64,000 nt of DNA from Pseudomonadota bacterium (GTDB lineage Bacteria; Myxococcota_A; Polyangia; Fen-1088): assembly GCA_017881245.1 (NCBI GenBank), contig JADGRC010000193.1:21747-85746 (forward strand). Reading direction: 5' to 3'. A program made the position numbers and the translations under genes. Positions 1 through 39,360 of the stretch are shown one piece after another; position 1 is the stretch's first letter; each line of letters starts with the position of its first letter. The notes under the pieces were generated by a model. The model was given only the letters and a program-made list of their open reading frames with translations, did not search any database and was not told the origin of the DNA.

Positions 1-1084
1 CGTCGGCGGTCAGGTTCGCGGCCAGGGTCTCGCGGATGGCGAAGGCCGCGCGGCGGGCCGGCGCCGCCATGCTCACCATCTGATCCCCCTTGGCGTAGCC
101 AAAGATCACTGCCCGATTCGGATTGCCCGGCAGACTCGCCCCTTTGATCGCCGCAGCCGCGGGGACTCCCCACCCGAAATCTCCGGCGACGCTGGAAATG
201 GTGACGGTTCCGGTCAGTGTCCCCACGAGAGGATTGCCGGCGGTCGTGATTTGTACCTGGGTCTGGGCCGCCACCATGCCGTAATCGGTGTTCAGCGTAG
301 CGGGCGTCATTCCCATCAGGGCGTATTCCCCGTTCTCGATACACAGGACGGGAATCGCGACGTCGCGCACCTTCGCGGCCAAGGGCCCCGATTCCGCGCT
401 GCTGGAGATCACGACCAGGTCCATCCCGGCCACGGCCGCCGCCGTGACGGCCGCATCGGTCATGGTCGTGGTCTGAATTCCTCGTGCCGTCATTCGACCC
501 AGCATGACGTTGTCTCCGGCGGTTGGCTTGCCGGCGCCGGTGATGATCATGATGGCTTTTAATGGGTGAGTTGCGCCACCGGCCGCGTCGGAGCCGCCGT
601 CGCGCGGTGCCCCGCCAGCGGCACCGCCGCCTCCGCCGAGACCCACGGCGCCGCCACCTCCGCCCGTCGCGGATAGGTCGGTGGCTGCGTCATCTGACAC
701 GGCCGCGTCGCTGTTCGGGCCCGTCCCGGCAGTTCCCCCGGTTCCGCCTCCGGCGTTGGCGCCCGTGCCTCCAGAAGAGGATCCTCCGGTGTTGGCGAGC
801 GACCCACCCGTCGCGGGTGGCGTGCCCCCGGTCGCGACCATGGTCGCGCCGCCGCTGCCCGGCGTTGTGCTGCTTCCACCGGTTCCCAGCGTGGTTGCGC
901 CGCCACTTCCGGGACCTGCCGCGCCACCGCTTGACGTCTTGGCCGGCATCGCCGCGCTGCCACCACAGCTTGCCACCGCGACCGCCAGCAGCGCAGCGGC
1001 CAGCGCGAGCGCGGGTCGCCGGCCGGACGACCCGGGCCCGTGGTTTGAATACGAGTGATGGAGTCGGTCACAAAGAGAGCGCAT
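1..1084 (-). CDS. Lipoprotein with Gly/Ser/Thr-rich linker and a C-terminal globular domain of unknown function; the 3' end runs off the left window edge
   Basis: Absent from the ORF track because there is no stop inside the window. Manual minus-strand translation from the ATG at 1084-1082 gives MRSLCDRLHHSYSNHGPGSSGRRPALALAAALLAVAVASCGG (lipobox-like VASC). A G/S/T-rich spacer of about 130 aa follows, then HPLKAIMIITGAGKPTAGDNVMLGRMTARGIQ...VLCIENGEYALMGM, open down to position 1. Confidence 0.6.
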   Translation of the reverse strand, partial: MRSLCDRLHHSYSNHGPGSSGRRPALALAAALLAVAVASCGGSAAMPAKTSSGGAAGPGSGGATTLGTGGSSTTPGSGGATMVATGGTPPATGGSLANTGGSSSGGTGANAGGGTGGTAGTGPNSDAAVSDDAATDLSATGGGGGAVGLGGGGGAAGGAPRDGGSDAAGGATHPLKAIMIITGAGKPTAGDNVMLGRMTARGIQTTTMTDAAVTAAAVAGMDLVVISSSAESGPLAAKVRDVAIPVLCIENGEYALMGMTPATLNTDYGMVAAQTQVQITTAGNPLVGTLTGTVTISSVAGDFGWGVPAAAAIKGASLPGNPNRAVIFGYAKGDQMVSMAAPARRAAFAIRETLAANLTAD

Positions 1085-1129
1085 GGGCTTGGGCGACCTT
1101 TCAGAAGGAGAAGAACCGAAACCACAGTG

Positions 1130-1594
1130 TCAGGCGGGATCGGCCGACAGGGCCCAATATCGCACGCTTTTGCGGTCCGTGGCCGCGAACTCGTCGAGGA
1201 GCGCGCCTTTCCAGATGCTCTTGAGATTGGGACTGAGCTGCAGCTTGTGTACGTCACCGGTCTTGAAGCTGCGCACTTTCCCCGCCACGTTCGCCTTCAT
1301 CGCGTCGCTGATCTTCGCGCGCGGCTGTCGTGGCTTGTAGTGCGCCACCAGGATCGACTGTCCATCCATGGGACCCCCGATGACCTGATAGCGCATGACG
1401 TACGCATAGTCGTAAAGATCGTCGGGCGGGAACTTCGTTGGGATCTCGACCAGTTTCGCGGTCACCGCGAGGGCAGGGGGCGCCGCCCCGGACTCGGCAC
1501 GAACGTCTGCCGCGGCGAGCATGGACAAAACGGCCGCGACGACGACTAAACGGACACTGATCGAATTGACCGGGGACGATAGGGCGGGCTTCAT
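1130..1594 (-). CDS. Secreted protein of unknown function (154 aa)
   Basis: N-terminal signal peptide (VVVAAVLSMLAAADVRA). ATGA overlap with the upstream gene at 1591-1594. Same strand and tight spacing with the operon. No recognisable domain. Confidence 0.65.
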   Translation of the reverse strand: MKPALSSPVNSISVRLVVVAAVLSMLAAADVRAESGAAPPALAVTAKLVEIPTKFPPDDLYDYAYVMRYQVIGGPMDGQSILVAHYKPRQPRAKISDAMKANVAGKVRSFKTGDVHKLQLSPNLKSIWKGALLDEFAATDRKSVRYWALSADPA

Positions 1595-2511
1595 GGCGAT
1601 GACCTCGGCGGGATTCCCCCGCGATTTTCTTGTTCGCTGATTGTGGAACGCCGGACGGATGGCTGCCGGGCGTTCCGCTCGGTTTCCAGAACGGAAAGAT
1701 TGTGGGCCAACCCAGGTAAATCGGGTCGCGCCCGAGCCGCCGCGCGGTAGGACGAGGCCGCGGCCTGCAAATCACCGGACAGCTGACTGATGATGCCGAC
1801 GCTGGCGGATGCCTCGGCGAATGACGGAAAGTCCCGCGCCGCGCGTGCGTAGGCGTCGCTTGCTCCCGCGAGATCCCCCGCGGCGTGGCGTTGGTTTCCG
1901 ACGTTGAACCAATGAACGGCGATCACCTCGGGTATCGCAAGCGGACGCATGTAAGCGGACGCCGTTTCGGTCCACGGTCCGTACTTGCTGCGATACCAGT
2001 CGTCGGGCATCGCCTCGCCCCGACGCAAGAGCTCGACATTCCGCGCGCGCGGCCCGAGCACCCGAACGAAGAAGTGACCCGGAACCAGGATGCCGCGGAT
2101 CGGCAGACCCAGACGCTCGCCTAGCGCCAGATACAGCGCGCCGAGTCCCAGACAGCCTCCCCGGCGTCCGGTGACGACCGACGGGAGAAGCAGGAATCGC
2201 GAATCGGTCGCGCTGATTTCGCGGGCATAGCCGAGCTCCTCGAAGACGACGGCGTTGATCACATCAATCGCGTCCTGCCCCGGGCGCGGCCGCCGGACGG
2301 ACACGCGCTTACCGATCTCGTCCACCAGTCTCCAGGCCTTGGCAACATCTTCGGGTGGCGTGCCTTGTTCCGCAGCGAACGCAAGCAGGGCGCTCGCCAT
2401 GGGCCCCGGAACCTGAGGAACACCATCCCAGGCCCGTCGGCACGTCGCCCCCGAAACGACGAGCAGCGCCGCGGAGCCAAGCCCGCCGATGAACCTGGCG
2501 CGGGAAATCAT
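1591..2511 (-). CDS. Transglutaminase-core-like (SirB1-type) protein with C-terminal TPR-like repeats
   Basis: RRGGCLGLGALYLALGERLGLPIRGILVPGHFFVRV matches the transglutaminase-like Cys/His core pattern. The C-terminal half is Ala-rich helical repeats (NVGNQRHAAGDLAGASDAYARAARDFPSFAEA...). ATGA overlaps at both ends. Confidence 0.75.
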   Translation of the reverse strand: MISRARFIGGLGSAALLVVSGATCRRAWDGVPQVPGPMASALLAFAAEQGTPPEDVAKAWRLVDEIGKRVSVRRPRPGQDAIDVINAVVFEELGYAREISATDSRFLLLPSVVTGRRGGCLGLGALYLALGERLGLPIRGILVPGHFFVRVLGPRARNVELLRRGEAMPDDWYRSKYGPWTETASAYMRPLAIPEVIAVHWFNVGNQRHAAGDLAGASDAYARAARDFPSFAEASASVGIISQLSGDLQAAASSYRAAARARPDLPGLAHNLSVLETERNARQPSVRRSTISEQENRGGIPPRSSP

Positions 2512-4631
2512 TTCGCGGACACCGGTTGCCAGCCCTCCCAGAAATCGTAGAGGTCACGCGCCGTCATCATCCAGACGACCAGTTTTTTCGCTTCCAGGGC
2601 TTTCAAACCTCGTCGCAGCAGCTTCTGTCGGACATTCGGCCCGCCCCCGTAGCTCATGACGAGGTCGACGGGATAGCCGATCTCTTTCGCAAGGTGCGCG
2701 GACACGCCTGCGTGCTCACAGTCCATCAGTTCGAAGACGCCGGTGAAGCTGTCCCCGAGCACGACGATGGGGCTGTCGGCATCGTCCTCATACAGCGTTC
2801 CGTCGGAATTCAGGACCTGATCTCCGACCAGGTTCTCAGGTTGGTACCGGCCCTTGTCAGCCTCCGGGAGGCGGGAATGCAAGTCGCCGTGGCGGCTGAA
2901 CGTCGACTCCTTGGTCTTGTAGATCCTGCGATGCGCTGCGATCTCCTTGTACCAGGGATACGTCTTGATTCGCTCGGCCACGGCGCGCGCGGCCAGCTCC
3001 AGGCCGCGGTTCGTCCAGTGGGTGTCCTGGGCCTGATAAAGCGATGCCTTCTCGTGTCGGGCCGTCGAGTGCCCCTTCGATTCTTCGTCCGCGCGTACGC
3101 CCAGAAACAACGGCAACAGGTCCACCACCTCGACGCCTTTTTCGCCCAGGTCCAACAAGAACTTGCGTTCGAAGGGATTGACCACCTTACCCACGAGATG
3201 TGCGCCGGTCGCGCGTTCAACGGGCGTAATTCCGATCTTGTCGGGGAAGATCTCCTCCTTTGTCGGCACCGGCACGAACAGCAGATCGACGCCTCGCTCG
3301 GCCAGTAGTTTCTTGAACTGGAGAATGACGGGAACCGGGTTGCGCCCGCGTTTTTGCTTCTCGAGATCGCCCCCGGTGGCGTACGCCATGGATTGCCCGA
3401 AGAACAAGAATCCATCGTCGCCTGCCACCGCCTTGGCGCCCGCCGGAATCGCCTTGAGCTTGGTCCGCATCAGGTCGTTAAGGGGCGCCACGGCGGCCGC
3501 CCAGCGATTCCACGATCCACCGTTTGCGTTCAGTTCGGTCTTGACGGCGGCGATCACCGCGTTTGGCTGGGGGGACGGCGTCGTGCGCGGCAACGACAGC
3601 TTGGGAGTTGCCTTCGCGACGCCGCTACCGCTCGCGGCGCCTTCGGCGGCGGCGGCGCCGGCTCCGGTGACCAGGAACACGTTGTACACCGGCTTGCCCT
3701 GGGGCTTACCGCGCATCACGACTGCCGGCGAGGCGAAATGTTGCCCACCCAATTCCGCGATGATCTCCGGTTCGGTTTCGGCGTCCGGCCAGGATTCACC
3801 GGGGGTAACCAGATCGGTGTTGTAGGACGGGTACCAGTATGAGGCCAATTGGTGCGCCCATTTTTTGACTTCGGCGGGCGATAACACCCGGCCGGCGTAG
3901 TCGTCGCGAATGAAGGCCAAGAGAGCGGAGATCTTGTCGCCGAGCGCCTGGGCGGGGACGCGGCCATAGAGCTCGCCGAATCCGTCGCCGTCGGCGTCCG
4001 GGATGCCCACGAATTCCTTGAACCAGGGAGCGAACTCAATTTTGACCCAGAGCTCGGTCGCCTTGCCGGTACCCGCGTCGTGCAAATAAGCAGCGACCGC
4101 CGCTTGGCGAACCAACTGGGGGCCCCCTCCCAGGCCCCAGTCCTCCGCGCGCACTTTCGCGGCGGTGTCCTCGATCGTGTCGCCCCCCGGAATGTGTTTG
4201 GAGGTCAGCAGTTCCACGAGAGGCGCGAGCGCCAGGGGGTGTTGCCGTTCTTCTGGCGTAAGCGGCAAGGATCCGAGCGTACCCGTCAACAACTCCAGCG
4301 CGCCACCGAACGGGTGACTGGTGTCGGGACGTTTGCCCGTGGTGGCGCGCATCGCACCTTCGGGGTCCGGATCGGCGTTCATGAAATTCGCGTCGTAGGC
4401 CGCGTAGTCAAGGTTGGCGCGCGTGGGGCGGGCGATCTCGCGCACCAATACTTGTGAGGTGCCGCGACGGTAGTTCTTGTTGACGGTCAGGACATCGGCG
4501 CTGCCAGATGAGATCATCTTTCCGGTCGCGGGCCACGGGAAGGCGACGCCCGAATGGCCACAGGTCCCGACGAGCAGCAAGGTGACCGCGAGGAACGGCA
4601 CCAGGCGCGTTGGGGTGTCAGACATAGGCAC
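2508..4631 (-). CDS. Large periplasmic protein: unassigned N-terminal half (about 400 aa) plus a C-terminal AlgX/AlgJ-type SGNH-like O-acetyltransferase domain
   Basis: Signal or lipoprotein-like N-terminus (FLAVTLLLVGTCGH). Carries the AlgJ/AlgX signature QDTHWTNRG and the downstream VVLGDSFTGVF (D-H-S triad pattern). Start is the GTG at 4631 or the ATG at 4625; either overlaps the stop of the GT2 gene. Confidence 0.8.
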   Translation of the reverse strand: MPMSDTPTRLVPFLAVTLLLVGTCGHSGVAFPWPATGKMISSGSADVLTVNKNYRRGTSQVLVREIARPTRANLDYAAYDANFMNADPDPEGAMRATTGKRPDTSHPFGGALELLTGTLGSLPLTPEERQHPLALAPLVELLTSKHIPGGDTIEDTAAKVRAEDWGLGGGPQLVRQAAVAAYLHDAGTGKATELWVKIEFAPWFKEFVGIPDADGDGFGELYGRVPAQALGDKISALLAFIRDDYAGRVLSPAEVKKWAHQLASYWYPSYNTDLVTPGESWPDAETEPEIIAELGGQHFASPAVVMRGKPQGKPVYNVFLVTGAGAAAAEGAASGSGVAKATPKLSLPRTTPSPQPNAVIAAVKTELNANGGSWNRWAAAVAPLNDLMRTKLKAIPAGAKAVAGDDGFLFFGQSMAYATGGDLEKQKRGRNPVPVILQFKKLLAERGVDLLFVPVPTKEEIFPDKIGITPVERATGAHLVGKVVNPFERKFLLDLGEKGVEVVDLLPLFLGVRADEESKGHSTARHEKASLYQAQDTHWTNRGLELAARAVAERIKTYPWYKEIAAHRRIYKTKESTFSRHGDLHSRLPEADKGRYQPENLVGDQVLNSDGTLYEDDADSPIVVLGDSFTGVFELMDCEHAGVSAHLAKEIGYPVDLVMSYGGGPNVRQKLLRRGLKALEAKKLVVWMMTARDLYDFWEGWQPVSAK

Positions 4632-5409
4632 CTCGCTTGAACCGCCACATCACTCGCAACACGCGCATGCCGTAGGTGAGCGGATTCAGGTGGGAGATCT
4701 CGTCGGCGTACCGGGTGGGGATCGGCGCCTCGCCGACGGCCAAGCCGCGTGCCCGCGCGCTCGCGATCACCTCCATGTCGAAATCAAAACTATCGCTCAG
4801 GCGGTCGAAGGGCACTTCGGCCAGGGCGCGCGCGCCGTATACCAGATACCCGCTGTGAAAGTCGGTCATGGGCAGGGTGAAAACGCGGCGTTCCATCTGG
4901 TTCAGCAACCAGTTTCCCGCGTATTTGTAGAAGGGCATCCCACCAGACAATGCTTCGCCACCCGCGATCCGCGAACCTTGCACCAGATCGAGATTTCGAT
5001 GGTCCAAAGTTGCCAGCAAGCCGGTCAGCGCCTCCGGGCTATATTGGCCGTCGGCATGTACGGACGCGGCCACGGTGGCGCCGGCCTCACGAGCTGCCCG
5101 AAGGCCTGTCTTCATGGCGGCGCCGTAACCGCCGTTTCGGTCGCGGATGATCAGAGTCACCCGTGGATTCAACCGCGGCAAGTGAGGCGCGCTTTCCCGT
5201 GTTCCTGGCCGCGTTCCTGCGAGGGATCTCGCCGAGTGGCTATTTTCCGTGGTCAAAGCGCGTGCCACGGCGGCGGTATTGTCGCGGCTTCCATCGTCGA
5301 CGATCACGACACCTTCCAGTCCGGGCGGATTTGCGACGCGCAGACGGCGAATCACGCCCGTCAAGTGGCGTGCCGCATTGAAGGCCGGCACGACGACCCA
5401 AAGGCTCAT
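4618..5409 (-). CDS. Family 2 glycosyltransferase, soluble polyprenyl-phosphate-sugar synthase type (DPM1/ArnC-like, no C-terminal TM helices)
   Basis: VVVPAFNAARHL...VIVDDGSRDNT...RNGGYGAAMKTG...VHADGQYSP are typical GT2 DXD-region motifs. ATGA overlap with the upstream gene at 5406-5409. Confidence 0.85.
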   Translation of the reverse strand: MSLWVVVPAFNAARHLTGVIRRLRVANPPGLEGVVIVDDGSRDNTAAVARALTTENSHSARSLAGTRPGTRESAPHLPRLNPRVTLIIRDRNGGYGAAMKTGLRAAREAGATVAASVHADGQYSPEALTGLLATLDHRNLDLVQGSRIAGGEALSGGMPFYKYAGNWLLNQMERRVFTLPMTDFHSGYLVYGARALAEVPFDRLSDSFDFDMEVIASARARGLAVGEAPIPTRYADEISHLNPLTYGMRVLRVMWRFKRGAYV

Positions 5410-6605
5410 CGAGATCCTCCCGAAGCGACTGTTTTCAACTGGGCGCGCTCGGCCAGAAGCGGCTCGTAGCGCGCAATGTAATCGTCCACGATGCTCGGCA
5501 ACATGGTGCGAAGGGGCATGCGAGGATGCCAGTCGAGCAGGCGCTCGGCCTTGGCGATTGACGGAATCCGCACGACCGAGTCGTCATAACCGTCGCCGTA
5601 GTACTTCCGCGCGGTGATCGGGCGCAGCCGGGGTACGGGAGCGTTCGGGCGTCGCGCACGAAAGGCTCCGGCGACCGCCCGCGCGAGCGCCCGGATGGTG
5701 ACGTCGTTGAGTGGATTGCCCAGGTTCAGGATCTCGCCCCGACACTCCCGGGGGCGGTCGATGATCCGGAGCAGAGCGTCTACGAATTCGTCGACGTGGA
5801 CGAACGACCGGCGCTGCTTTCCACCGTCCACCAAAAGCAGATCCTCTCCCATCAACAGCGCGTGCATGAACGAGGCGAGCACGCGCGGAATTCCTTCGCC
5901 GTCGATGCCCGGGATGAAGTCCATGCGCGGACCGATGACGTTGAATGGGCGTACCAGGGTGAAATTCAGTCCGGCGTGCTTGCCGTGTGCCCAGATGACA
6001 CGTTCAAGGAGCTGCTTGGCGGCCGCATAGGACCAACGTTCCCTGTGCACTGGTCCGAGGCACAGCGATGTTTCGTCCTCGAGCATTTCGGTCGTGGCCC
6101 GCCCCTCGTCGTCGAGCGCCCTGCGACCGTAGACTTCGCAGGTCGACAGGTGGATCAGCCGCTTGCCTCGACTCGCGCACAGTTTCACGAGCGGCACGAG
6201 ATCGGTGTAGTTGGCGTCGATCACCTCGAGCGGCTGGGTGTTGTAGAGCGCGGGGTTGCACAGGGCGGTCAGGGAAACAAAGACATCGCAACGCCCCATC
6301 AGATCGTCGAGGAGGCCCGGCGTATCCAAGCGCGCCTCGATTCGTCGCATTCGCGGCGAGCGAGCCCCCAGTTTGTCGAGACACCTGTCGACGGCGTCGA
6401 TGCGGAGATTCCCCCGTCGGGCCAGAAGCGCGGGGATCAAGTGCGAACCGATGAAGCCTCCGGCGCCCAGAACGGCGATCCGGGGGAGCGGCGCGGGCGC
6501 CAAGCTGGCGATCGGGAAGGCCGCCCGGGCACGCGCCTCACGGGATTGCGCCCGCGGGGAACGGCTTGATGTCGGGCGGGACGGAGGGGCTTTCAGGATG
6601 CTCAC
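5406..6605 (-). CDS. NAD-dependent UDP-glucuronate decarboxylase resembling the ArnA C-terminal domain
   Basis: Rossmann motif IAVLGAGGFIGSHL. RWSYAAAKQLLERVIWAHGKHAGLNFTLVRPFN...DGGKQRRSF parallels E. coli ArnA RWIYSVSKQLLDRVIWAYG...DGGKQKRCF. GTG start in a GTGA overlap at 6602-6605. The N-terminal 40 aa are low-complexity, so the true start may lie further in. Confidence 0.85.
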   Translation of the reverse strand: MSILKAPPSRPTSSRSPRAQSREARARAAFPIASLAPAPLPRIAVLGAGGFIGSHLIPALLARRGNLRIDAVDRCLDKLGARSPRMRRIEARLDTPGLLDDLMGRCDVFVSLTALCNPALYNTQPLEVIDANYTDLVPLVKLCASRGKRLIHLSTCEVYGRRALDDEGRATTEMLEDETSLCLGPVHRERWSYAAAKQLLERVIWAHGKHAGLNFTLVRPFNVIGPRMDFIPGIDGEGIPRVLASFMHALLMGEDLLLVDGGKQRRSFVHVDEFVDALLRIIDRPRECRGEILNLGNPLNDVTIRALARAVAGAFRARRPNAPVPRLRPITARKYYGDGYDDSVVRIPSIAKAERLLDWHPRMPLRTMLPSIVDDYIARYEPLLAERAQLKTVASGGSR

Positions 6606-7939
6606 CGCTTGGCTTTCTTCTTCTTTTTTGACTTGGCGCTGCCACCCGATTGTTTGGCAGACTTTTCGTCCGCATCGTCGTCGTTCGAGGGCGAGGCGCT
6701 CTCGGTGGTCGACGATTTGGACTTCGATGCGCCGTCGTCGGCTTTGTCCGTGCCGCCTCCGGCTTTCTTGTCCTCGCCACTCGCGTCTTCGTCGTGCTTG
6801 CTGGATTTGGCGACGGCCTTGTTGTCACGCTTACCGCTCGCACCTGCGCTTGGGCCGCCCGATCCAGGGATGAAGATGTCGGGCCACCGATCGTTGCCCG
6901 AGTGGTAGGTCAATCGCGTCGCCGTCTCCGGCGGCGCGCCCACTTTCCACAGATAGATCTCATAGTCCGCGATGTCGTGGTCGTGGCCGCGCTGGGTCGC
7001 GGCCCAAACCAACCAGCGCCCATCCGCCGACAGCTGCGGAAAGTATTCGTGTGAACGGCGCCCCGGAATGTCGATCAGAGTGATGGAATCGGCGTCGGCG
7101 TCGGTCTTCGTCGGCTTGCCGTCCTCGATCGCCATGTGCAGGACGCGGCTGCCACCGTTGCCGGTTGGGTGCATCCAGTAGATCTCATCTCCCGACGGAG
7201 TCCAGTTGATTTGGCAGCCTTCACCCGTGCGGTTCCATTTCTTCCCTGCGATATCCCAAATGCCGGTTTCACGCTTCGACCCACGGAGGGTGATGGCGAT
7301 GTATTTCCCGTCCTTGGACATCTCGGGCTGCTGCATCAGGGCCGCGTCCAGCTCCGGCACCTTGGCGCTGTCGACCAGTAGCGTTTCGTCGCCGCCCGAG
7401 AGTTTACGGCGATAGATGCGCGTCGTCCGCGCGTAGACTATCTCGTCGTTCGAGACCCAGTTGCCCCAGCTTGCGTTGTCCACGACCTTGGTCTCGTCAC
7501 TTCCATCGGGCGCGACCGTGAAAATGTCCCACTTGCCATCCGTGTTGGCGTCGCGTTCGAACACCCAGCCCTTCTTACTGCGCGTGAACAGGATGCGCGC
7601 TCCGTCTGGCGAAAACCGGGGAAACCAGTCGACGGCCTCGCCTTTCGTAATCTGGCGGACGTGGGAGCCGTCCGTATTCATCATGAACAAATCGTGATTT
7701 CCCACCCTCGAGCTCGACCACACGATTTGGCCCTTGACCTGCTCCCCCATGGCCGCCATGGCTTTCTCTTCGGCCTCGTCGGGCTTTTCCTCGCTGCCGC
7801 TCGGTGGACCCGCGCCCACCGTGGCGCACCCCGGCGTCCAACCCAGGCACAGGGTACCCGTGATGATGGCGAAGGCGGAGCGCCGCCAGATTCGAGACAA
7901 TTGGCGCGGGCGGGGGTCGTTGTTTTGGTCCTGGATCAT
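6602..7939 (-). CDS. TolB-like WD40/PD40 beta-propeller lipoprotein with a disordered, polybasic C-terminal tail
   Basis: PD40-type repeats (DLFMMNTDGSHVRQITKGEAVDWFPRFSPDGARILFTR; DIFTVAPDGSDETKV; YFPQLSADGRWLVWA). Start chosen at the ATG at 7939 (MIQDQNN...AFAIITGTLCLGWTPGCA) because it makes an ATGA overlap with the upstream stop. The tail ends in KSKKKKKAKR. Confidence 0.75.
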   Translation of the reverse strand: MIQDQNNDPRPRQLSRIWRRSAFAIITGTLCLGWTPGCATVGAGPPSGSEEKPDEAEEKAMAAMGEQVKGQIVWSSSRVGNHDLFMMNTDGSHVRQITKGEAVDWFPRFSPDGARILFTRSKKGWVFERDANTDGKWDIFTVAPDGSDETKVVDNASWGNWVSNDEIVYARTTRIYRRKLSGGDETLLVDSAKVPELDAALMQQPEMSKDGKYIAITLRGSKRETGIWDIAGKKWNRTGEGCQINWTPSGDEIYWMHPTGNGGSRVLHMAIEDGKPTKTDADADSITLIDIPGRRSHEYFPQLSADGRWLVWAATQRGHDHDIADYEIYLWKVGAPPETATRLTYHSGNDRWPDIFIPGSGGPSAGASGKRDNKAVAKSSKHDEDASGEDKKAGGGTDKADDGASKSKSSTTESASPSNDDDADEKSAKQSGGSAKSKKKKKAKR

Positions 7940-8889
7940 GATGTTCTCCTGGGTTCGGCCATCGCTCGCGGCCGCGCTGTTTCCGCGGTCGAAAAACAAC
8001 GAGCGAGTCCTTCTCTGACGCCGACTGGTTGGTAACCAAGATCATTCGCGGCGCTGGCACAGTCTAGATCCGCGTGATTGGTGAATCCCATCACGCCGTA
8101 CTGAGTGATGGGCGGCCGTCTCATGGTCAAGCCGAGCAAACCCGCGATCCCGCGACAAAGCCAAACGGGCACGTGGACGAAAGGCTTGCTGCGACCCTGC
8201 AGAAGGAGCACGAGTCGCCCCATCTCCTCCAGGGTGATGGATTCGCCGCCGCTGAGATTGTAGGTCTTGCCGAACGCAATTGGGTTTCCGAGCACACGCG
8301 CCAGGCCATCGACCACATCCTCCGCGCGTACGGGGCTTTTGCGTGCCAGTCCGGGACCGATGAACGGTACAACCGGATAACGTTGTAGCAACTTCAAGAA
8401 CATTTGGAACTCTTCACCGCCCGATCGGTCGTAGACCAGCGTGGGGCGCACGATCGTGTACGCGAAGCGCGTCTCCGCCCGCACGAAGGCTTCAGCGAGC
8501 AGCTTGGAGCGCCCATAAGGCGTCAAGCGCGGATACGTCACCGAGGCCGACGAGACGTACACGAAGTGTCGAACCTGGGCCGCCGCGGCCGCCGCCACCA
8601 TGTTGGCCGTGCCCTGTCGATTCACGGCGTCCAGAATTCTCTTGTCGCGCGCGAGGATCACCGCCGCCGCGTGGACGACGGCGTCCGCGCCATCGACTGC
8701 CGCAGTAAGAGAGCCCGGATCGCGTACATCCCCCTCGACGATCTCACAACCTGAGGCGGTCAGCCTTTCGCGCAGGGGATCGCCCGGCAAGACCAGACCA
8801 CGTACGCGCCAGTCTTCCTTGAGCAACCGATGGACCAGGCGCGATCCCATCTCGCCAGCCGCGCCGGTGACCAAGACCAATCGATTCAC
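7936..8889 (-). CDS. NAD-dependent epimerase/dehydratase (SDR) family protein
   Basis: VNRLVLVTGAAGEMGSRLVHRLL Rossmann motif right at the proposed GTG start (8889), which forms a GTGA overlap with the upstream stop. YGRSKLLAE carries YxxxK. The track ORF extension up to 9204 is Arg-rich junk that overlaps the upstream gene. Confidence 0.8.
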   Translation of the reverse strand: MNRLVLVTGAAGEMGSRLVHRLLKEDWRVRGLVLPGDPLRERLTASGCEIVEGDVRDPGSLTAAVDGADAVVHAAAVILARDKRILDAVNRQGTANMVAAAAAAQVRHFVYVSSASVTYPRLTPYGRSKLLAEAFVRAETRFAYTIVRPTLVYDRSGGEEFQMFLKLLQRYPVVPFIGPGLARKSPVRAEDVVDGLARVLGNPIAFGKTYNLSGGESITLEEMGRLVLLLQGRSKPFVHVPVWLCRGIAGLLGLTMRRPPITQYGVMGFTNHADLDCASAANDLGYQPVGVREGLARCFSTAETARPRAMAEPRRTS

Positions 8890-10301
8890 GGCGCCGACCT
8901 CGGTTTGGGTGTGACGTTGTCCGTCGGCCCCGACGGCCCCGCTCCATTCCCGTCGCGTCGCGCGGAGGGACGGGGCCAATGGAGCGGCTTCCAGTTTCCA
9001 ACGGCGAGCTCGCGCGAGGCGAATTCCCAAATCACGACCTTCTTGCCAGCCAGCCGATCCGGTTGTCCGGCCTCCGGACTCGCGAGCTCGTTCGAGAGCA
9101 GCTTTCGCGTCGCGAACGCGCCGGAATCGTTCTGTGCGATGACGTCGACGTCGCGTTGAAGAGCGCGTGCGAGCTGCGGCGCCAGACCGGCAGCCTCGCC
9201 CCAACCCATCTGTTCCAACGTGAACACGTTTGTAAAGCTGTCACCAAGCAGCAGGACCTCAGCCGCCGGTTTTGGTTCAAAGAGCGCGCCCGCGCCATCC
9301 TGCACCTCGTGAACCGTAACGGTCTGGGGCGCAAAGAGCGTCTGTCCTGCCGGCAGTCCTATCATGTCCACGACGTCCCCGACTCGCGAAACGGTCTTCG
9401 AGACCGTCGTCCACGGCCGGCTCGGCGCGTTCGGATTCAACGCCACCCGCTGGCGAATGAAAGCCCCGAGCGCACGCGCGATATCTTCCATCCACGCGGG
9501 CGTCCAGTGCGTATCCTGTTGGAGAAATAGCGGTTGTCCCGGGTCGAGGCGCGCCGGCGTCGGATCGAACACCAATACGCCCGCGGACTCCAACTCGGCG
9601 ACTAGCCGGTCCTGATCGGGATTTCGTCCCGGCGACAAACCGCGTCCGCCTCCGACGCGCCCGTGCAGTTGCGCGGGCTGGAGGCCGGCCTTGTCTGGTA
9701 CCGGAAACAGGATGAGGCGGATGCCGCGGCTTGCCAGGAAGGCGTGAAAATCGAGTATCGCCGGTCGTGGATCCGGATACACGGCCTCGCCACCCGCATC
9801 CAGCGCCGCCTTCGCGCGGCTCCGCAGAATCGGCGGGTCAAGCAGTCCTGGCCCGCCGACCGCGACTAGTCCAGGCTGATAGAACAGCCATCCGTTCTTG
9901 CCGACCACGGCCTTCGAGTTTCCGAAGCCACCGATGGCCGTCAACGCGAGTTGCAGGCGCGGACGGATCGCCTCGCGGGGGTAGGACGCCTTTTCCAGAT
10001 CCTCCTCGAATTGTTTGATGCTGTCCTGGGTCGGCCAGCGGGAAAACAGGTCCGGCAACACGGACTCGTCACCTTTGACGCGTTCCATGATCGTCTGGGC
10101 GATCGACACGGCGCCGATGATCAACAGGAACAGCCCCGTCAGGAACGCGGCCGTGGGGCGCCCGATCCGCGTGTGCAAAATCCCGCGGCGCAGCTCATCG
10201 TCATGCGACGGGTCCGTGGGGCCACCGCGGGTGGGGTGACCGGCAGGCAACGGGCGCAGCTCGCGGGCGGCGCGTGGATTTGTGGGTCGATTCGAGCTCA
10301 T
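8886..10301 (-). CDS. Membrane-anchored AlgJ/AlgX-type O-acetyltransferase-like protein
   Basis: N-terminal TM anchor (AAFLTGLFLLIIGAVSIAQTI). FLQQDTHWTPAW (D-x-H-W) and LLLGDSFTNVF match the same triad pattern as alginate AlgJ/AlgX. Confidence 0.8.
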   Translation of the reverse strand: MSSNRPTNPRAARELRPLPAGHPTRGGPTDPSHDDELRRGILHTRIGRPTAAFLTGLFLLIIGAVSIAQTIMERVKGDESVLPDLFSRWPTQDSIKQFEEDLEKASYPREAIRPRLQLALTAIGGFGNSKAVVGKNGWLFYQPGLVAVGGPGLLDPPILRSRAKAALDAGGEAVYPDPRPAILDFHAFLASRGIRLILFPVPDKAGLQPAQLHGRVGGGRGLSPGRNPDQDRLVAELESAGVLVFDPTPARLDPGQPLFLQQDTHWTPAWMEDIARALGAFIRQRVALNPNAPSRPWTTVSKTVSRVGDVVDMIGLPAGQTLFAPQTVTVHEVQDGAGALFEPKPAAEVLLLGDSFTNVFTLEQMGWGEAAGLAPQLARALQRDVDVIAQNDSGAFATRKLLSNELASPEAGQPDRLAGKKVVIWEFASRELAVGNWKPLHWPRPSARRDGNGAGPSGPTDNVTPKPRSAP

Positions 10302-10325
10302 TTCGAGATCACGGCGTCGGGATTG

Positions 10326-11810
10326 TCAGAATTGAAAGTAAAGGAACGGGTTGGTGCTCTGCGTCCACATGACCAGGATGGACAACATCAAGAGCCCCAT
10401 CGCGAAGACCGCTCGCGGAGGAGAAAGACGAGTCGTGAACGCCCACGTATTCGGGGCGGCCCAGACCAGAATGCCGGCGAGAATGAAGATGCTGACGTGA
10501 TAGCGCGTGTACAGCGCTCCGGCGAGCGCATCCGCGCCGGCGGTTATCCGTGCCCTCGAAATTCCAAATAGCGATTCGCAGTACGTTACCGCCTGGGTGA
10601 GCGTCTTGGCCCGAAAGAAGACCCAGCCGAGACAAACGATCAAGAAGGTGAGGGCGATACGGACAGGACGCGGGAGGCGGCGCCTGTTGTCACGGCTCCG
10701 CAGCGCCTTTCTTTTTGCCTCCTGTGCTCGCTCAAAGGCCAGCATCCCCCCATGCAAGGCCCCCCAAAGGACGAAATTCCAGCTGGCCCCGTGCCACAGG
10801 CCTCCGAGCAGCATCACGACCGTCAGATTGATGTACGTGCGGCGCTCGCCTCGGCGATTTCCGCCGAGCGGGATGTAAAGATAGTCGCGCAGCCAGGTCG
10901 ACAAGCTGATGTGCCAGCGTCGCCAAAAGTCCGTGATTCCCTCGGCCTGATAGGGCGAGTTGAAGTTTTGGATCAACACGAAGCCCATCATCAACGCCAG
11001 ACCGCACGCCATGTCGGAGTAGCCCGAGAAATCGAAGTAAATTTGAAACGCATATCCGAACAGACCGAACCAAGCGTCATGCGGCGGCAGCGCTCCTGCG
11101 GCGAATGCCGTATCGGCGATGTGCCCCATGGGATTGGCGATGAGGATCTTCTTTGCCATGCCGAGGGCGAAGAAACTGACGCCGCGCGCGAACTTGTCGA
11201 GGGTGTGCTGACGCACGCGCATCTGCTCCTCGATGGCGGCGTACCGGATAATGGGTCCGGCGACCAGATCGGGAAAAAACGCCTCGAAGCACAGATAGTC
11301 GACGAACCGGCGCATGGGACGCGCGTCGCCACGATAGACATCCACCGCGTAGCTCATGGCCTTGAACGTGTAGAACGAGATCCCCACCGGCAGAACCAGG
11401 TGAAACACCGGCAGCGCTCCCGCACCGAGCCCCAGTGCCTGCGCCAAGGCGTTAACGTTCTCGGCCACGAAGCCCGTGTATTTGAAGGCCGCCAACAAGC
11501 CCAAGTTCGTGATGATCGAGATCGCGAGAACAATCTTCATGGCCCGGGTCCGCGGAACCTTGCGATCGATCACCGGCGGCAGCCCGTCCAGGTCAGGAAG
11601 GCCGGATAACCTCACCAGGGCCAGCCCGCAGAAGTAATCCACGCTGGAGCCAAAGAACATGATCACGGCCCAGATCGGATTCGCCCAACCATAGAAAACA
11701 TAACTGGAACATGCGATGAGCGCGGTGCGCGCCCGAAACGGCAGTGCGTAGTAGACCGCCAGCACCAACGGCAGGAAGTAGAAGAGAAAGACGTGGCTGG
11801 TGAAGACCAT
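10326..11810 (-). CDS. MBOAT-family membrane O-acyltransferase (AlgI/PatA/DltB-like)
   Basis: MVFTSHVFLFYFLPLVLAVYYALP is a typical AlgI N-terminus. Multi-pass membrane protein. Conserved RRWHISLSTWLRDYLYIPLGG and LGGLWHGASWNFVLWG (catalytic His region). Confidence 0.9.
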   Translation of the reverse strand: MVFTSHVFLFYFLPLVLAVYYALPFRARTALIACSSYVFYGWANPIWAVIMFFGSSVDYFCGLALVRLSGLPDLDGLPPVIDRKVPRTRAMKIVLAISIITNLGLLAAFKYTGFVAENVNALAQALGLGAGALPVFHLVLPVGISFYTFKAMSYAVDVYRGDARPMRRFVDYLCFEAFFPDLVAGPIIRYAAIEEQMRVRQHTLDKFARGVSFFALGMAKKILIANPMGHIADTAFAAGALPPHDAWFGLFGYAFQIYFDFSGYSDMACGLALMMGFVLIQNFNSPYQAEGITDFWRRWHISLSTWLRDYLYIPLGGNRRGERRTYINLTVVMLLGGLWHGASWNFVLWGALHGGMLAFERAQEAKRKALRSRDNRRRLPRPVRIALTFLIVCLGWVFFRAKTLTQAVTYCESLFGISRARITAGADALAGALYTRYHVSIFILAGILVWAAPNTWAFTTRLSPPRAVFAMGLLMLSILVMWTQSTNPFLYFQF

Positions 11811-11954
11811 GCAGTCTGTAGTGTCGGTCCACCCGGTCGAACGGTTCGTCAGGGGGGACGACGACGGTGGCGGGGGTGACGGGACAAGGACATTGGCACA
11901 TTGGCGTTGGATTCGCGACTGATCGGAGCACCATGTTTGGCTAAAACAGGCGGG

Positions 11955-11980
11955 AATCGGCAGTGATCGGCAGAAATCGG
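11955..11980 (+). repeat. Three helically phased direct repeats (ATCGG at exactly 10-bp spacing; the first two copies are ATCGGCAG)
   Basis: gAATCGGCAGtgATCGGCAGaaATCGGatt, with ATCGG at 11956-60, 11966-70 and 11976-80. It lies 13 bp upstream of the ATG at 11993 in the divergent promoter region. Confidence 0.5.
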
Positions 11981-11992
11981 ATTGTCAAAGTG

Positions 11993-13990
11993 ATGAAAAA
12001 CCCCCAGGCGCTACCCCTCACCGGCGTGCGTGAGCGCTGGCATCGGAGACTGGTGTTGCCGGCACTTTTTGCCGGCGCCTTCGTTATCGCCCTTTCGCCC
12101 GTTTCGGATGGCGACATCTTTTGGCACCTCGCGGCGGGGCGCGAGATGGTCCGTCGCCATGACTGGCTCAGAACCGATCCGTTTACCTTGAGCGCGGCAG
12201 GACGGCCCTGGCTGGACATTCACTGGCTTTTTCAACTAGCCGTTTTTGCCATCTATCGCGTCGTGGGACTTACCGGTCTAGTCGTTGCGAAGGGCATCAC
12301 GGTTGCATGCGGTGCCGTCATCCTGGCGCGCACGGTTGAAAAATCGGAACGTCGAGACTCCCGCCTCAACCTGAGCTTGTGCGCGGTCGCTCTGCTCGCG
12401 GCGCTCTTCCTGGCGCGCCATTTGTTGCTCGCGCGGCCCGTCATCTTGACGCTGCTGATGCTGGCGCTGTTTGTCGCGGTACTCGAGGGTTGTCGAAACG
12501 GGTCCACGCGCCGGCTCATTTGGCTGCCGGTTCTCCAGATCGTGTGGTCCAACTGTCAGGGTCTGGCCGTGCTGGGGCCGATCCTGATCGCGATCTATCT
12601 TGTGGCGGCGCTGCTCTCGCCGCTGGCCAGCGGCGAGAGCTGGCCCTTCGAGGATGAGCATTCCTTACCGCGGAGGGCACTGGGAATCACGCTGGCCTTT
12701 TGTTGCTTGGGTCTGCTGGCGACGCCATTTGGTTGGAAAGCCATCGCTCTTCCGGGGGGGCTTCTTCTGCGCCTCGTCCCAGGGCAAGGGAATGTCTTCT
12801 CCACGCAGATCGCGGAAAATATTCCGCCGTGGCTTTTGGAACGTACGGCCCCGGCCGAGACGGCACATCTTGGGTGGGTGCTCGGGGCGCTCGCTCTGTG
12901 CATCGCCCTGTCGCGCGAGCGGCTGGCCTTGTCGCGGCTACTAGTTTTGATTGGGTTCGCGTCCCTGGCGCTGATGGCCAATCGCAATGTTCTGTTGTTC
13001 TATTGGCTGGCATCCCCGATCGCTGCGATGGCCATGGCTTCCCGCCTGCGCGAAGTGGTGGCGCGTCTTGCGACCATTGGGGTCCCCGAAAGGTGGTGGC
13101 GTTGGCTTGCCCCAGGCTTGGCGGCCCTGGTGATGTTTGGCCAGATCGCCCTAGCCATCGTCGCGCAAAGAGGCGAGGGCGAAATCGGCGTTCCCGCGGC
13201 ATTTCATTTTCCCGTCGAATCAGCTCGCTATCTGCGTGGGATCGCGGCGTCGGGGCCCATCTTCGCTCCCGACCACCACGGCGGTTATTTGGAGCTGACG
13301 GTCCCGGAATTGAGGCCGTTCATCGACACAAGATTGGTGTTGCACACGGCCGAAGAGTATGAAGCCTATTTAGACGTCGTGGCGAATCCGGAAAAGTTCG
13401 ACGTGCTGGCGGAGACGCAGAAATTCCGGTACGTCGTCCTGACCACGGCATACCCCGATCGCTACATCGGATTGGCGCAACATCTCGCCACCAACGGCGC
13501 ATGGCATCTGGTTTTCACGGATGGTTCGGAAGTTGTATTTGCGCGCGAAGGGGCCTCCATGGGGTTGGGGGACAGGGCGACCACCGACGCGATTCTTGCA
13601 ACCCTCGCGACGCGATTCTCAAATTCGGAGAAGCTGCTTGACACGTCGCTGCTGAATTTCGCCAGGCTTCTGATCGTTCTCGGCGAAACCCGCGAGGCTC
13701 AAATCGTGCTGTCCGCGTCGGCCTCGCGCGCGGCGGCGCAGATGCGGGCACGCGCCTGGTTCGTGGCCGGAGAACGTCGCGCCGCCGAGAGTCTGGCTCG
13801 CACCCTGCTGGATTCGGACGGTGACGACGTGCGGAGTCTGGCGCTACTCGCCCAAATCGCCATAGCGGAAGGTCACGGGGGCGCCGGCGCAGAGTGGCTT
13901 TCACGCGCGTTACGCATCGATCCGTACGATCCCGAGGCGCGGGCGGTCCTCGCGCGCCTGGAGAATCAGGACGGATTCATCATCCCTTGA
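11993..13990 (+). CDS. Polytopic membrane protein with GT-C-like features and a C-terminal TPR domain (putative lipid-linked-sugar glycosyltransferase)
   Basis: About 12 predicted TM segments. An acidic DGD motif follows TM1 (LSPVSDGDIFWHLAAGREM), as in the first periplasmic loop of ArnT/PMT-type enzymes. The soluble C-terminal third has TPR-like repeats (RAWFVAGERRAAESLARTLL...WLSRALRIDPYDPEARAVLARL). The fold assignment is inference. Confidence 0.6.
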   Translation: MKNPQALPLTGVRERWHRRLVLPALFAGAFVIALSPVSDGDIFWHLAAGREMVRRHDWLRTDPFTLSAAGRPWLDIHWLFQLAVFAIYRVVGLTGLVVAKGITVACGAVILARTVEKSERRDSRLNLSLCAVALLAALFLARHLLLARPVILTLLMLALFVAVLEGCRNGSTRRLIWLPVLQIVWSNCQGLAVLGPILIAIYLVAALLSPLASGESWPFEDEHSLPRRALGITLAFCCLGLLATPFGWKAIALPGGLLLRLVPGQGNVFSTQIAENIPPWLLERTAPAETAHLGWVLGALALCIALSRERLALSRLLVLIGFASLALMANRNVLLFYWLASPIAAMAMASRLREVVARLATIGVPERWWRWLAPGLAALVMFGQIALAIVAQRGEGEIGVPAAFHFPVESARYLRGIAASGPIFAPDHHGGYLELTVPELRPFIDTRLVLHTAEEYEAYLDVVANPEKFDVLAETQKFRYVVLTTAYPDRYIGLAQHLATNGAWHLVFTDGSEVVFAREGASMGLGDRATTDAILATLATRFSNSEKLLDTSLLNFARLLIVLGETREAQIVLSASASRAAAQMRARAWFVAGERRAAESLARTLLDSDGDDVRSLALLAQIAIAEGHGGAGAEWLSRALRIDPYDPEARAVLARLENQDGFIIP

Positions 13991-35560: not shown

Positions 35561-36214
35561 ATGAGTCCTCTCATCTTTCGTCCAAAGCACAACACACTAG
35601 CCCGGCTGACGCTGGTTATTCTCGCTGCCGGTGGGGCTGGAACAGTCGGCGGGTTGTTTCTGTGGGTCCGCATGCCTTATGCGCGGAACATGCAGGCGCC
35701 CATCGAGCAGCCGTTGCAGTTCGACCACCGCCATCACACGCGGGACGAGGGGATCGACTGTCGTTACTGCCACAACACCGTGGACAAGAGCGCCTTCGCC
35801 GGCATTCCCCCGACCCAGTTGTGCATGAACTGCCATTCGCAAATCTGGAACAAGAGTCCAATACTCGATCCGGTTCGCCGGAGCTTCATCGACGACAAGC
35901 CCATGGTCTGGAATCGCGTCTACAAGGTTCCCGAGTTCGTTTATTTCAATCATTCCATCCACGTCAACAAAGGCGTCGGCTGCGTGACCTGTCACGGTCG
36001 CGTCGATACGATGGCCGCCGTCGAGAAGGCAACGACCCTGATGATGAGCTGGTGTCTCGACTGCCATCGGAATCCAGAAATGAACCTGCGGCCGGTCGAA
36101 GAGATCACCAACATGACCTGGCAGCCGGACGGCGACCCCGTCGAAGTCGCGCGGGTCCTCGCCGTGAAGAACAATGTCCACACACGCGTTAGCTGCACCA
36201 CGTGCCACCGATGA
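35561..36214 (+). CDS. actA: Alternative complex III subunit ActA (pentahaem cytochrome c)
   Basis: N-terminal TM anchor and five CXXCH motifs: CRYCH, CMNCH, CVTCH, CLDCH, CTTCH. Confidence 0.9.
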   Translation: MSPLIFRPKHNTLARLTLVILAAGGAGTVGGLFLWVRMPYARNMQAPIEQPLQFDHRHHTRDEGIDCRYCHNTVDKSAFAGIPPTQLCMNCHSQIWNKSPILDPVRRSFIDDKPMVWNRVYKVPEFVYFNHSIHVNKGVGCVTCHGRVDTMAAVEKATTLMMSWCLDCHRNPEMNLRPVEEITNMTWQPDGDPVEVARVLAVKNNVHTRVSCTTCHR

Positions 36215-39354: not shown

Positions 39355-39360
39355 TCGAAC

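Follow-up and report, generated by a model that had tools for sequence, protein, structure and literature searches.

A conserved ten-gene locus of Polyangia-like bacteria, probably for the decoration of an envelope target with a lipid-carried pentose and an acyl group

Introduction

The locus considered here lies at one end of the window (the whole stretch of 64,000 nucleotides analysed, from contig JADGRC010000193.1 of assembly GCA_017881245.1). It joins two short-chain dehydrogenases/reductases (SDR), a GT2 glycosyltransferase, a GT-C-like membrane protein, an MBOAT acyltransferase and two AlgJ/AlgX-type proteins. The question that it raises is what such a gene set does. On balance, it is probably a conserved, self-contained system that decorates an envelope target outside the cytoplasm, with an apiose/xylose-type pentose brought by a lipid carrier and with an AlgI/J/X-like acylation. 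Within this model, we infer the flippase, the acyl group, the acceptor and the exact sugar.

The genes of the conserved set are given below in positions of the window, with the basis of each assignment in brackets.

1130..1594, minus strand: small (154 aa) secreted protein, the best conserved of the set (signal-like N-terminus)
1591..2511, minus strand: transglutaminase-like (Transglut_core2) plus TPR protein, TGcore2 (306 aa; Pfam, 54 bits)
2508..4631, minus strand: secreted two-domain protein, ALGX707 (705-707 aa), with an N-terminal domain and a C-terminal AlgX/AlgJ-type SGNH domain (Pfam, AF2 model)
4618..5409, minus strand: small soluble GT2 of the polyprenyl-phosphate-sugar synthase type (263 aa; Pfam Glycos_transf_2, family profile)
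5406..6605, minus strand: SDR that resembles UDP-apiose/UDP-xylose synthases (399 aa; PDB match, motifs, homologue conservation)
6602..7939, minus strand: PD40/TolB-like beta-propeller, secreted or lipoprotein (445 aa; Pfam PD40)
7936..8889, minus strand: cytoplasmic extended SDR, SDR317 (317 aa; Pfam NAD_binding_10 and Epimerase)
8886..10301, minus strand: AlgJ-like SGNH acyltransferase with an N-terminal membrane anchor, ALGX471 (471 aa; Pfam ALGX, 102 bits)
10326..11810, minus strand: MBOAT membrane acyltransferase, AlgI/DltB-like (494 aa; Pfam MBOAT, 110 bits)
11963..13990, plus strand: predicted GT-C-fold glycosyltransferase with a C-terminal alpha/beta domain and a TPR domain (675 aa; AF2 model, Foldseek)

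Results

Synthesis of the nucleotide sugar

The best solved-structure match of the 399-aa SDR is the Arabidopsis UDP-apiose/UDP-xylose synthase AtUAXS (6h0n; E 7e-82, 279 bits), with 43% identity across 338 aligned residues. The bacterial enzymes biochemically shown to make UDP-apiose are 43-49% identical to AtUAXS (PMC5607165). Other solved structures score less: ArnA decarboxylase domains, about 209 bits; UDP-xylose synthases (UXS), about 68 bits. An earlier reading of the sequence alone (hereafter, the sequence-only reading) had seen in this gene a decarboxylase closely parallel to the C-terminal domain of ArnA; these scores, and the UAXS cysteines described below, replace that assignment.

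The features of an extended SDR are present: GAGGFIGSH (GxxGxxG), and S-T-C-E and YAAAK, which align with T139, Y185 and K189 of AtUAXS. Cys100 lies in ALCNPALYNT (window sequence LTALCNPALYNT) and Cys140 in STCEVYG (Cys140/Glu141); a plant-type PRMDFIPGIDG is also found. Both cysteines are retained in 119 of the 120 best homologues. The residues at these two positions are Ala and Ser in ArnA and RsU4kpxs. In a published alignment, UDP-apiose synthases (UAS) have the first cysteine within LAAIC(T/N)PA.YNT, where ArnA and RsU4kpxs have Ala; STCEVYG occurs in plant UAS and CeUAS, and STSE in ArnA, UXS, GrUAS and XpUAS (S1 Fig, PMC5607165). Cys140 is not strictly required, since the active GrUAS and XpUAS carry Ser at position 140, whereas the enzyme of the window retains both plant cysteines. 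Structure 6H0P is the C100A variant of AtUAXS (PMC7984243).

The NCBIfam scores of the 399-aa SDR are under both cutoffs (294 and 777); that against the ArnA equivalog is 233 bits for a cutoff of 777. Homologues of the gene are labelled UDP-apiose/xylose synthase by the JGI pipeline. The top match to AtUAXS, the cysteine and motif signatures and the conservation among homologues together lead to the reading of the 399-aa product as a likely UDP-apiose/UDP-xylose synthase, its product being deduced from the sequence. The sugar is likely to be apiose and/or xylose. A neutral pentose rather than 4-amino-4-deoxy-L-arabinose had been expected by the sequence-only reading; that part stands, and the assignment of the sugar is shifted to apiose and/or xylose.

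The GT2, the second SDR and the GT-C protein

The start of the GT2 gene overlaps the stop of the synthase gene by 4 nt (ATGA). A family profile was built from 16 GT2 orthologues and searched against the PDB. Its top matches are the Pyrococcus Dol-P-Man synthase DPMS (5mlz, E 1e-20), GtrB (5ekp) and ArnC (9hwj/9bhc/8vxh). The five best distinct matches are all polyprenyl-phosphate glycosyltransferases; polymerising and Leloir GT2s rank lower. The single GT2 sequence, searched with phmmer against the PDB, matched no solved structure. In NCBIfam the GT2 comes closest to PpgS, which makes polyprenyl-phospho-GalNAc in mycobacteria, to AglJ and to a dolichyl-phosphate hexose transferase, at no more than 74-75 bits for cutoffs of 325-529. 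No transmembrane or hydrophobic segment was found in the protein. The type proposed by the sequence-only reading, that of a polyprenyl-phosphate-sugar synthase, is thus supported by the profile, and a lipid-phosphate acceptor is predicted. A 25-residue insertion (SHSARSLAGTRPGTRESAPHLPRLN...; window 5140-5275, residues ~45-88) is absent from all 15 aligned orthologues.

SDR317 carries GxxGxxG and YxxxK. Its best NCBIfam match is HpnA-like (101 bits, below cutoff), and no close solved relative was found. The gene is conserved in related loci and directly follows the GT2 gene in Fibrobacterota and in L081 and L084 (loci are numbered as in the comparative set described below). SDR317 is a candidate auxiliary epimerase or reductase that would set the identity of the pentose.

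The 675-aa protein was modelled with AF2 (AlphaFold) from a 41-sequence alignment (pLDDT 86, pTM 0.87). All 12 significant Foldseek matches of the model (E below 1e-3) are GT-C enzymes, as the GT-C-like label of the sequence-only reading implied: yeast and human STT3 (8age_A, E 3e-6, TMq 0.50), archaeal AglB, PglB and the C-mannosyltransferase DPY19, with 10-12% identity. ArnT is not among these significant matches. D49-G50-D51 and W54-H55 are invariant in the 41 homologues and are placed by the model in the first loop, where DGD provides the conserved acidic motif of the first extracytoplasmic loop of GT-C enzymes. The membrane domain has no Pfam or NCBIfam match, TPR_19 being the only Pfam match of the protein. 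It falls in none of the named families compared (STT3/GT66, ArnT/GT83, PMT/GT39, DPY19/GT98; GT136 was left out of this comparison). In many contigs this gene accompanies synthase/GT2 loci. The model thus predicts a GT-C enzyme, a periplasmic transferase that would use a polyprenyl-phosphate-pentose donor. With a GT2 of the polyprenyl-phosphate type and a GT-C fold in one locus, the logic of nucleotide sugar, then polyprenyl-phosphate sugar, then GT-C transfer holds.

The MBOAT and AlgJ/AlgX-like module

The MBOAT carries an RWHISL histidine motif. DltB is its best match both in NCBIfam (179 bits, below cutoff) and in the PDB (6bug, E 3e-29). The only solved sequence match of ALGX471 is AlgJ of P. 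putida (4o8v), with DTHW aligned and GDSF aligned to GTSY; a hydrophobic segment spans residues 46-75. In ALGX707, the Pfam ALGX match covers residues 402-689, and the two ALGX proteins score 94 and 102 bits. QDTHW and LGDSF are found in both, so that the Asp-His-Ser triad is complete in each. An MBOAT accompanied by two AlgJ/AlgX-type proteins had been proposed from the sequence, and Pfam bears this out with the D-x-H and GDS motifs intact.

The AF2 model of ALGX707 (pLDDT 83) is matched by Foldseek in its C-terminal half only, on AlgJ (TMt 0.74) and AlgX. The N-terminal domain of ~320 aa, confidently modelled and highly conserved, has no significant structural match in the PDB and no Pfam or NCBIfam match. 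Among 502 homologues of ALGX707, it shows many invariant W, Y, D and R residues, with motifs such as SYWYPSYNTDL and MRGKPQGKPVYNVFLV. By analogy with the carbohydrate-binding module (CBM) of AlgX, it may take a substrate-binding role.

AlgF, Alg8, Alg44, AlgK, AlgE, AlgG and AlgL are absent from the Pfam and NCBIfam matches. No AMP-binding or carrier-protein homologue of the DltA/DltC type was found in the whole 64-kb window. Dlt-type genes that adjoin the MBOAT do occur in sister loci such as L020 and L036.

The sister arrangement consists of an AMP-binding adenylase, a PP-binding carrier protein and a 344-aa protein immediately upstream of an MBOAT and an ALGX380 (for example, L020:10396-16147). 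It is found in L020, L023, L028, L039, L040 and L046; L025 and L038 are also listed. L036 has the arrangement with no AMP-binding gene detected, and here it runs contiguously into the block from SDR317 to the synthase. The sister arrangement stands in place of the window-type MBOAT pair, and its MBOAT is 48% identical to that of the window. It amounts to a Dlt-like supply of acyl groups by a carrier to an AlgX-type relay, in MAGs of Gram-negative bacteria. The transferred group is possibly not always acetate.

Conservation of the gene set

The comparison covered 101 loci, drawn from the contexts of synthase homologues, a genome scan and a scan of metagenomes with the GT-C family as anchor; genes were mapped by tblastn. 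The genome scan used strict peptide patterns and returned 15 loci, all metagenome-assembled genomes (MAGs) of Deltaproteobacteria, Fibrobacterota and one Gaiellaceae. The named sources of close homologues are Polyangia MAGs; related loci come largely from soil, peat and rhizosphere metagenomes. The gene set is found in about 30 loci of Polyangia-like/"Deltaproteobacteria" MAGs and of soil and peat metagenomes, and, reordered, in Fibrobacterota. A lack of conserved synteny had been named beforehand as a result that would speak against the system; conservation proved strong.

About 12 loci have the order of the window, i.e. MBOAT, small ALGX, SDR317, PD40, synthase, GT2, ALGX707, TGcore2 and 154-aa genes, with the GT-C gene divergent (L001, L003, L005, L024, L049, L051, L053, L054, L059, L068, L072, L076). 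The core PD40-synthase-GT2-ALGX707-TGcore2 occurs alone in L002, L004, L006 and L007. In Fibrobacterota L008 and L011, the order is synthase, GT2, SDR317, 154-aa, MBOAT, small ALGX and ALGX707; PD40 is found in L008, and TGcore2 and GT-C were not detected by tblastn in either locus. In L081 and L084, synthase, GT2, SDR317, TGcore2 and GT-C genes are contiguous on one strand. The synthase gene adjoins the GT2 gene in 27 of its 30 occurrences, the MBOAT gene adjoins the small ALGX gene in 23 of 29 loci, and the PD40 gene adjoins the synthase gene in 13 of 20 cases. That the genes are kept together in different phyla despite rearrangement speaks for a single pathway.

Most relatives have, beside the GT-C gene, a carbohydrate esterase of the SASA family and, next to the esterase, a ~370-aa protein that has a signal peptide, ends in ...PF and is outer-membrane beta-barrel-like (examples: L003:2758-5082; L001:2267-4610; L020:5611-8102). 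Neither of the two was found in the whole 64-kb window. The ~370-aa protein and the 344-aa protein of the sister arrangement have no match in Pfam, NCBIfam or the PDB. The absence of export genes, claimed by the sequence-only reading, therefore holds for the window but not for most relatives, which carry the beta-barrel-like gene and the esterase.

Two further observations concern single loci. L025:2589-7034, upstream of the canonical barrel-SASA-GT-C trio, encodes a second, divergent GT-C paralogue (36% identity), which has a beta-barrel-like and a PD40-like neighbour of its own. L002:5542-7518 (contig of 889 kb), some 1.3 kb upstream of the core module, encodes a 658-aa protein with an arabinofuranosidase catalytic domain (ArabFuran-catal), perhaps a pentofuranosidase tied to turnover of the product.

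Accessory proteins

The sequence-only reading had set aside a propeller, a transglutaminase/TPR protein and secreted proteins as a module of their own. This is refined here: the PD40, Transglut_core2/TPR and 154-aa proteins are integral, conserved members of the set. They are probably periplasmic partners and could act as scaffold, processing enzyme or acceptor.

The PD40 protein is 69-82% identical in the closest loci (L001-L005) and 63-80% in metagenome loci. Its C-terminal tail of ~90 residues (window 6602-6900) is of low complexity and K/D/S-rich (…SKSKSSTTESASPSNDDDADEKSAKQSGGSAKSKKKKKAKR). The tail looks poorly conserved, since tblastn matches rarely pass residue ~380 of 445; homologues are 349-446 aa long.

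The Cys (RRGGC), His (PGHFF) and N-x-E motifs of TGcore2 are conserved across phyla. A PDB sequence search with this protein returned TPR matches only. The TGcore2 gene follows synthase-GT2 in reduced Fibrobacterota loci and in L081 and L084, even where no MBOAT is present, and TGcore2 would thus belong to the glycosylation side.

The 154-aa protein has no match in Pfam, NCBIfam or the PDB, and no domain in common with the 707-aa protein. Its identity is 73-89% in Polyangia-like loci and 38-45% in Fibrobacterota L008 and L011 and in L079.

Layout of the locus and limits of the conserved set

The nine minus-strand open reading frames and the divergent plus-strand frame listed above, with its 675-aa membrane/TPR product, were found where the sequence-only reading had placed them. 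The same is true of the six 4-nt start/stop overlaps (ATGA or GTGA; 1591-94, 2508-11, 5406-09, 6602-05, 7936-39, 8886-89) from which one translationally coupled operon had been deduced. The GT2 and ALGX707 genes overlap by 8-14 nt at 4618, and 24 nt separate the ALGX471 and MBOAT genes. Every family that the reading had named was recovered by profile search; the Pfam matches above the gathering score are Transglut_core2 (with TPR), ALGX (twice), Glycos_transf_2, Epimerase (twice), PD40, MBOAT and, in the 675-aa protein, TPR_19. Two other features flank or divide the genes:

11811..11962, no strand: divergent intergenic region, presumed to hold shared promoters (152 nt between the MBOAT start and the GT-C start)
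1..1087, minus strand, running past the window edge: lipoprotein-like gene with a long G/S/T-rich linker, outside the conserved system (translation)

The intergenic region and its surroundings contain no sigma-70 consensus, no sigma-70-like promoter and no Rfam match; the terminator-like matches in the region are uninformative.

The leftmost lipoprotein-like gene (start ~1087) had been counted in a unit of eleven genes. It has no Pfam match and no homologue in the 101 related loci. It was rejected as a member of the system, as it is never conserved, and is probably an unrelated downstream gene. Since it has no counterpart in related loci, the conserved unit of the window is one of ten genes.

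Over 1-20 kb of the window, the Pfam and NCBIfam matches include no ArnB, formyltransferase, ArnD or ArnE/F-like domain and no polymerase, Wzx or Wza. The missing Arn functions are those that the sequence-only reading had listed as missing.

The remaining window encodes unrelated functions (a pair with an extracytoplasmic function (ECF) sigma factor, DUF1552/DUF1592-type proteins, alternative-complex-III-like genes and cytochrome oxidase), so that the locus appears as an island. The pair lies at 14069-15789 on the minus strand: the gene of the ECF sigma factor (Sigma70_r2/r4_2) has a 4-nt overlap with a downstream gene for a 332-aa protein that has a weak TPR match and is a possible anti-sigma partner. 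This pair directly adjoins the GT-C gene; an ECF sigma gene is likewise found near the module of L020. DUF1592/DUF1588 (PSD/PSCyt) and DUF1552 proteins, typical of Planctomycetes and Myxococcota, are encoded at 17747-20937 and 36202-47228, together with an alternative-complex-III-like Fer4/NrfD pair followed by cytochrome oxidase subunit I. This is an unrelated housekeeping context.

Discussion

Proposed mechanism

Supported by sequence, fold and synteny, the steps of the proposed system would be as follows. The plant-type UDP-apiose/UDP-xylose synthase would turn UDP-glucuronate into UDP-apiose (and UDP-xylose). The translationally coupled GT2 would at once move the pentose onto polyprenyl phosphate; immediate transfer would matter because UDP-apiose is unstable. 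SDR317 may re-tailor the sugar by epimerisation or reduction. After flipping, the divergently encoded GT-C/TPR enzyme would take the pentose off its lipid carrier and attach it to an acceptor in the periplasm. The MBOAT would carry an acyl group, probably acetyl, over the membrane to the anchored AlgJ-like ALGX471. Secreted ALGX707, its N-terminal domain binding the substrate, would then put the acyl group on the same glycoconjugate.

Several points weigh against this proposal. By Pfam and NCBIfam, the window has no flippase candidate of the GtrA, ArnE/F or MATE type. GT2, SDR317, MBOAT and synthase all score below the NCBIfam equivalog cutoffs, and their specificities are therefore extrapolated. 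Every characterised UAS also releases UDP-xylose (PMC5607165), so the transferred sugar may be xylose. Acetyl as the transferred group is called into question by the sister MBOAT, which is fed by an adenylating enzyme and a carrier protein. In several genomes (L002, L004/L020), more than 10 kb lie between the synthase core and both the GT-C gene and the MBOAT/small-ALGX pair, and the reduced loci of Fibrobacterota are without ALGX genes; acylation and glycosylation would thus be separable modules. The related genomes are all MAGs.

Alternative explanations

The 399-aa enzyme might instead make UDP-4-keto-pentose, as the ArnA C-terminal domain and RsU4kpxs do; the second SDR would reduce it to UDP-xylose or UDP-L-arabinose, which would pass by undecaprenyl phosphate and the GT-C enzyme to lipid A, the lipopolysaccharide core or another glycan. 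ArnA structures do match the 399-aa SDR at E 1e-60, a second SDR with intact YxxxK is conserved in the locus, and the GT2 profile also matches ArnC. This Arn-like route is nevertheless unlikely: AtUAXS outscores ArnA by 70 bits, both NCBIfam scores of the synthase are below their cutoffs (294, 777), Cys and Cys occupy the diagnostic positions in 119/120 homologues as in plant UAXS and not Ala and Ser as in ArnA and RsU4kpxs, and the GT-C model matches STT3 and DPY19, with ArnT not among the significant matches. A somewhat smaller probability is given to a Dlt-like relay, in which the MBOAT/AlgX-like module would hand on another acyl or aminoacyl group from a carrier protein and would not O-acetylate. 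The partners of the MBOAT belong to the ALGX family, AlgJ is the sole solved sequence match of ALGX471, and an AMP-binding or carrier-protein homologue is absent from the 64-kb window; on the other hand, DltB is the best NCBIfam and PDB match of the MBOAT, and L020, L023, L028, L036, L039, L040 and L046 place carrier-feed genes before a 48%-identical MBOAT (AMP-binding undetected in L036). The models used do not separate DltB-type from AlgI-type MBOATs, which also counts against the Dlt-like relay.

The GT2 could also act as a Leloir enzyme that directly makes a cytoplasmic or lipid-linked apioside or xyloside, as XpApiT and XpXylT of X. pisi do, while the GT-C enzyme would use a different donor. 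Soluble glycosyltransferases do lie beside UAS in X. pisi (PMC6193724), and no flippase gene is present; the GT2 scores far under all equivalog cutoffs, and its single sequence matches no solved structure by phmmer. This is held to be improbable, given that the five best distinct PDB matches of the profile are all polyprenyl-phosphate glycosyltransferases, that the GT-C gene is repeatedly linked to UAS-GT2 (contiguous and on the same strand in L081 and L084) and that the conserved set has no other donor-forming glycosyltransferase. Finally, two or three unrelated envelope modules might simply lie side by side with no common pathway. Modules are indeed apart in L002 and L004/L020, and some Fibrobacterota loci have only synthase-GT2(-TGcore2). 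ATGA/GTGA coupling spans all three proposed modules, however, and the full set recurs in about 12 window-type loci and, shuffled, in Fibrobacterota and L036; chance neighbourhood is very improbable.

Comparison with known systems

The ten-gene system with a lipid-carried pentose, preferred here, has its closest concept in the three-component systems of extracytoplasmic glycosylation, the nearest example being the pentofuranose system of Citrobacter youngae. Other examples are GtrA/GtrB/GtrC, GacI/J/L and CsbB/GtcA/YfhO (PMC11127046, PMC8035078). The choice of the pentofuranose added in C. youngae O2 is made by an auxiliary SDR epimerase in the cytoplasm, and the GT-C belongs to GT136 (PMC11127046). 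The paper makes no mention of apiose, of xylose derived from a UDP-sugar, of TPR-bearing GT-Cs or of acylation (PMC11127046). The window would share with these systems the cytoplasmic synthesis of a polyprenyl-phosphate monosaccharide and transfer outside by a GT-C enzyme, and the C. youngae epimerase parallels SDR317. The window differs in its predicted donor (from UDP-apiose/xylose via a GT2, vs phosphoribosyl pyrophosphate via a UbiA-type synthase), in the lack of a flippase gene, in a GT-C protein that is in no Pfam family and has a C-terminal TPR, in a position outside any O-antigen or cell-wall polysaccharide cluster, and in its coupling to an MBOAT/AlgJ/AlgX-type module and three conserved periplasmic proteins.

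The Arn pathway shares with the window a UDP-glucuronate decarboxylase of the same SDR clade, an ArnC-related GT2 and a GT-C transferase. The window lacks ArnB, the ArnA formyltransferase domain, ArnD and ArnE/F; its decarboxylase has UAXS residues, its GT2 lacks the transmembrane helices of ArnC, and its GT-C model has no significant match to ArnT. A true Arn pathway was rejected, as these four defining genes are absent.

The apiose operon of X. pisi comprises UAS, the GT90 ApiT and the GT2 XylT (pfam13704), with soluble glycosyltransferases beside UAS (PMC5607165, PMC6193724). As in the window, the SDR is ~43-49% identical to Arabidopsis UAXS and the synthase gene shares 4 nt at its stop with the gene of a glycosyltransferase. 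A 2017 study recorded no more than about 8 UAS in bacteria, with no conserved neighbourhood (PMC5607165), and the bacterial work on apiose gives no known apioside structure (PMC5607165, PMC6193724). The neighbourhood of the window, in contrast, is conserved across phyla and has no GT90, and its GT2 is of the PpgS/DPMS type, not pfam13704. An operon of the X. pisi type was rejected, GT90 being absent.

The alginate AlgI/AlgJ/AlgF/AlgX proteins (and also WssH/WssI and PatA/PatB) have a comparable MBOAT/SGNH relay. In AlgI/J/X as in the window, an anchored AlgJ-like SGNH protein is paired with a second, secreted AlgX-like SGNH protein that has an extra domain, with the Asp-His-Ser motifs conserved. 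Unlike alginate loci, the window has no Alg8/44/K/E/G/L, no AlgF match and no polymer synthase, and sister loci of its relatives feed the MBOAT from a carrier protein. The extra domain of AlgX is a C-terminal CBM, whereas that of ALGX707 is N-terminal and its fold has no match. Alginate, cellulose and peptidoglycan acetylation loci were rejected, as the synthase and partner genes are absent.

In mycobacteria, PpgS (Rv3631)/Rv3779 and decaprenyl-phospho-arabinose/Emb-Aft likewise feed a GT-C enzyme from a small soluble GT2 or a lipid-linked pentofuranose donor, so as to decorate or polymerise a wall glycan. Their sugars are GalNAc and D-Araf and their GT-C families are others; the hosts of window-type loci are Gram-negative Polyangia-like bacteria and Fibrobacterota. 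Pilin arabinosylation by TfpW of P. aeruginosa is another example of decoration by a GT-C enzyme from a lipid-linked pentofuranose donor. Literature searches that combined apiose with Fibrobacter, Myxococcus, gene clusters or undecaprenyl turned up no account of the present gene set, in agreement with the sequence-only reading, which knew of no characterised pathway with it.

Significance

The locus gives the plant-type UDP-apiose/xylose synthase a conserved gene context in several phyla. Its prediction is fourfold: the lipid-linked pentose donor, the GT-C family and the substrate-binding domain of the AlgX-like enzyme would all be new, and periplasmic glycosylation would be unexpectedly coupled to acylation that depends on an MBOAT. 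The recently recognised principle of three-component systems that add pentofuranoses outside the cytoplasm (PMC11127046) is extended as well.

A more specific reading is offered tentatively, as a real possibility that falls short of even chances: environmental Gram-negative bacteria (Polyangia-like Myxococcota and Fibrobacterota) may use polyprenyl-phosphate-apiose (lipid-linked apiofuranose) as the donor for a new GT-C family with a TPR domain, which would assemble or decorate an O-acylated glycan of the envelope, or a glycoprotein. It draws on the GT-C fold, closest to the protein-glycosylating STT3 and DPY19, and on the transglutaminase/PNGase-like partner protein. To our knowledge, polyprenyl-phosphate-apiose has never been described. 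Through the locus, the bacterial use of apiose becomes a directly testable question, and proof of apiose and of its lipid-linked donor would make the system far more important. Apiose has long been seen as a plant sugar; if the reading is true, it would be a widespread sugar of the bacterial envelope and not a plant curiosity.

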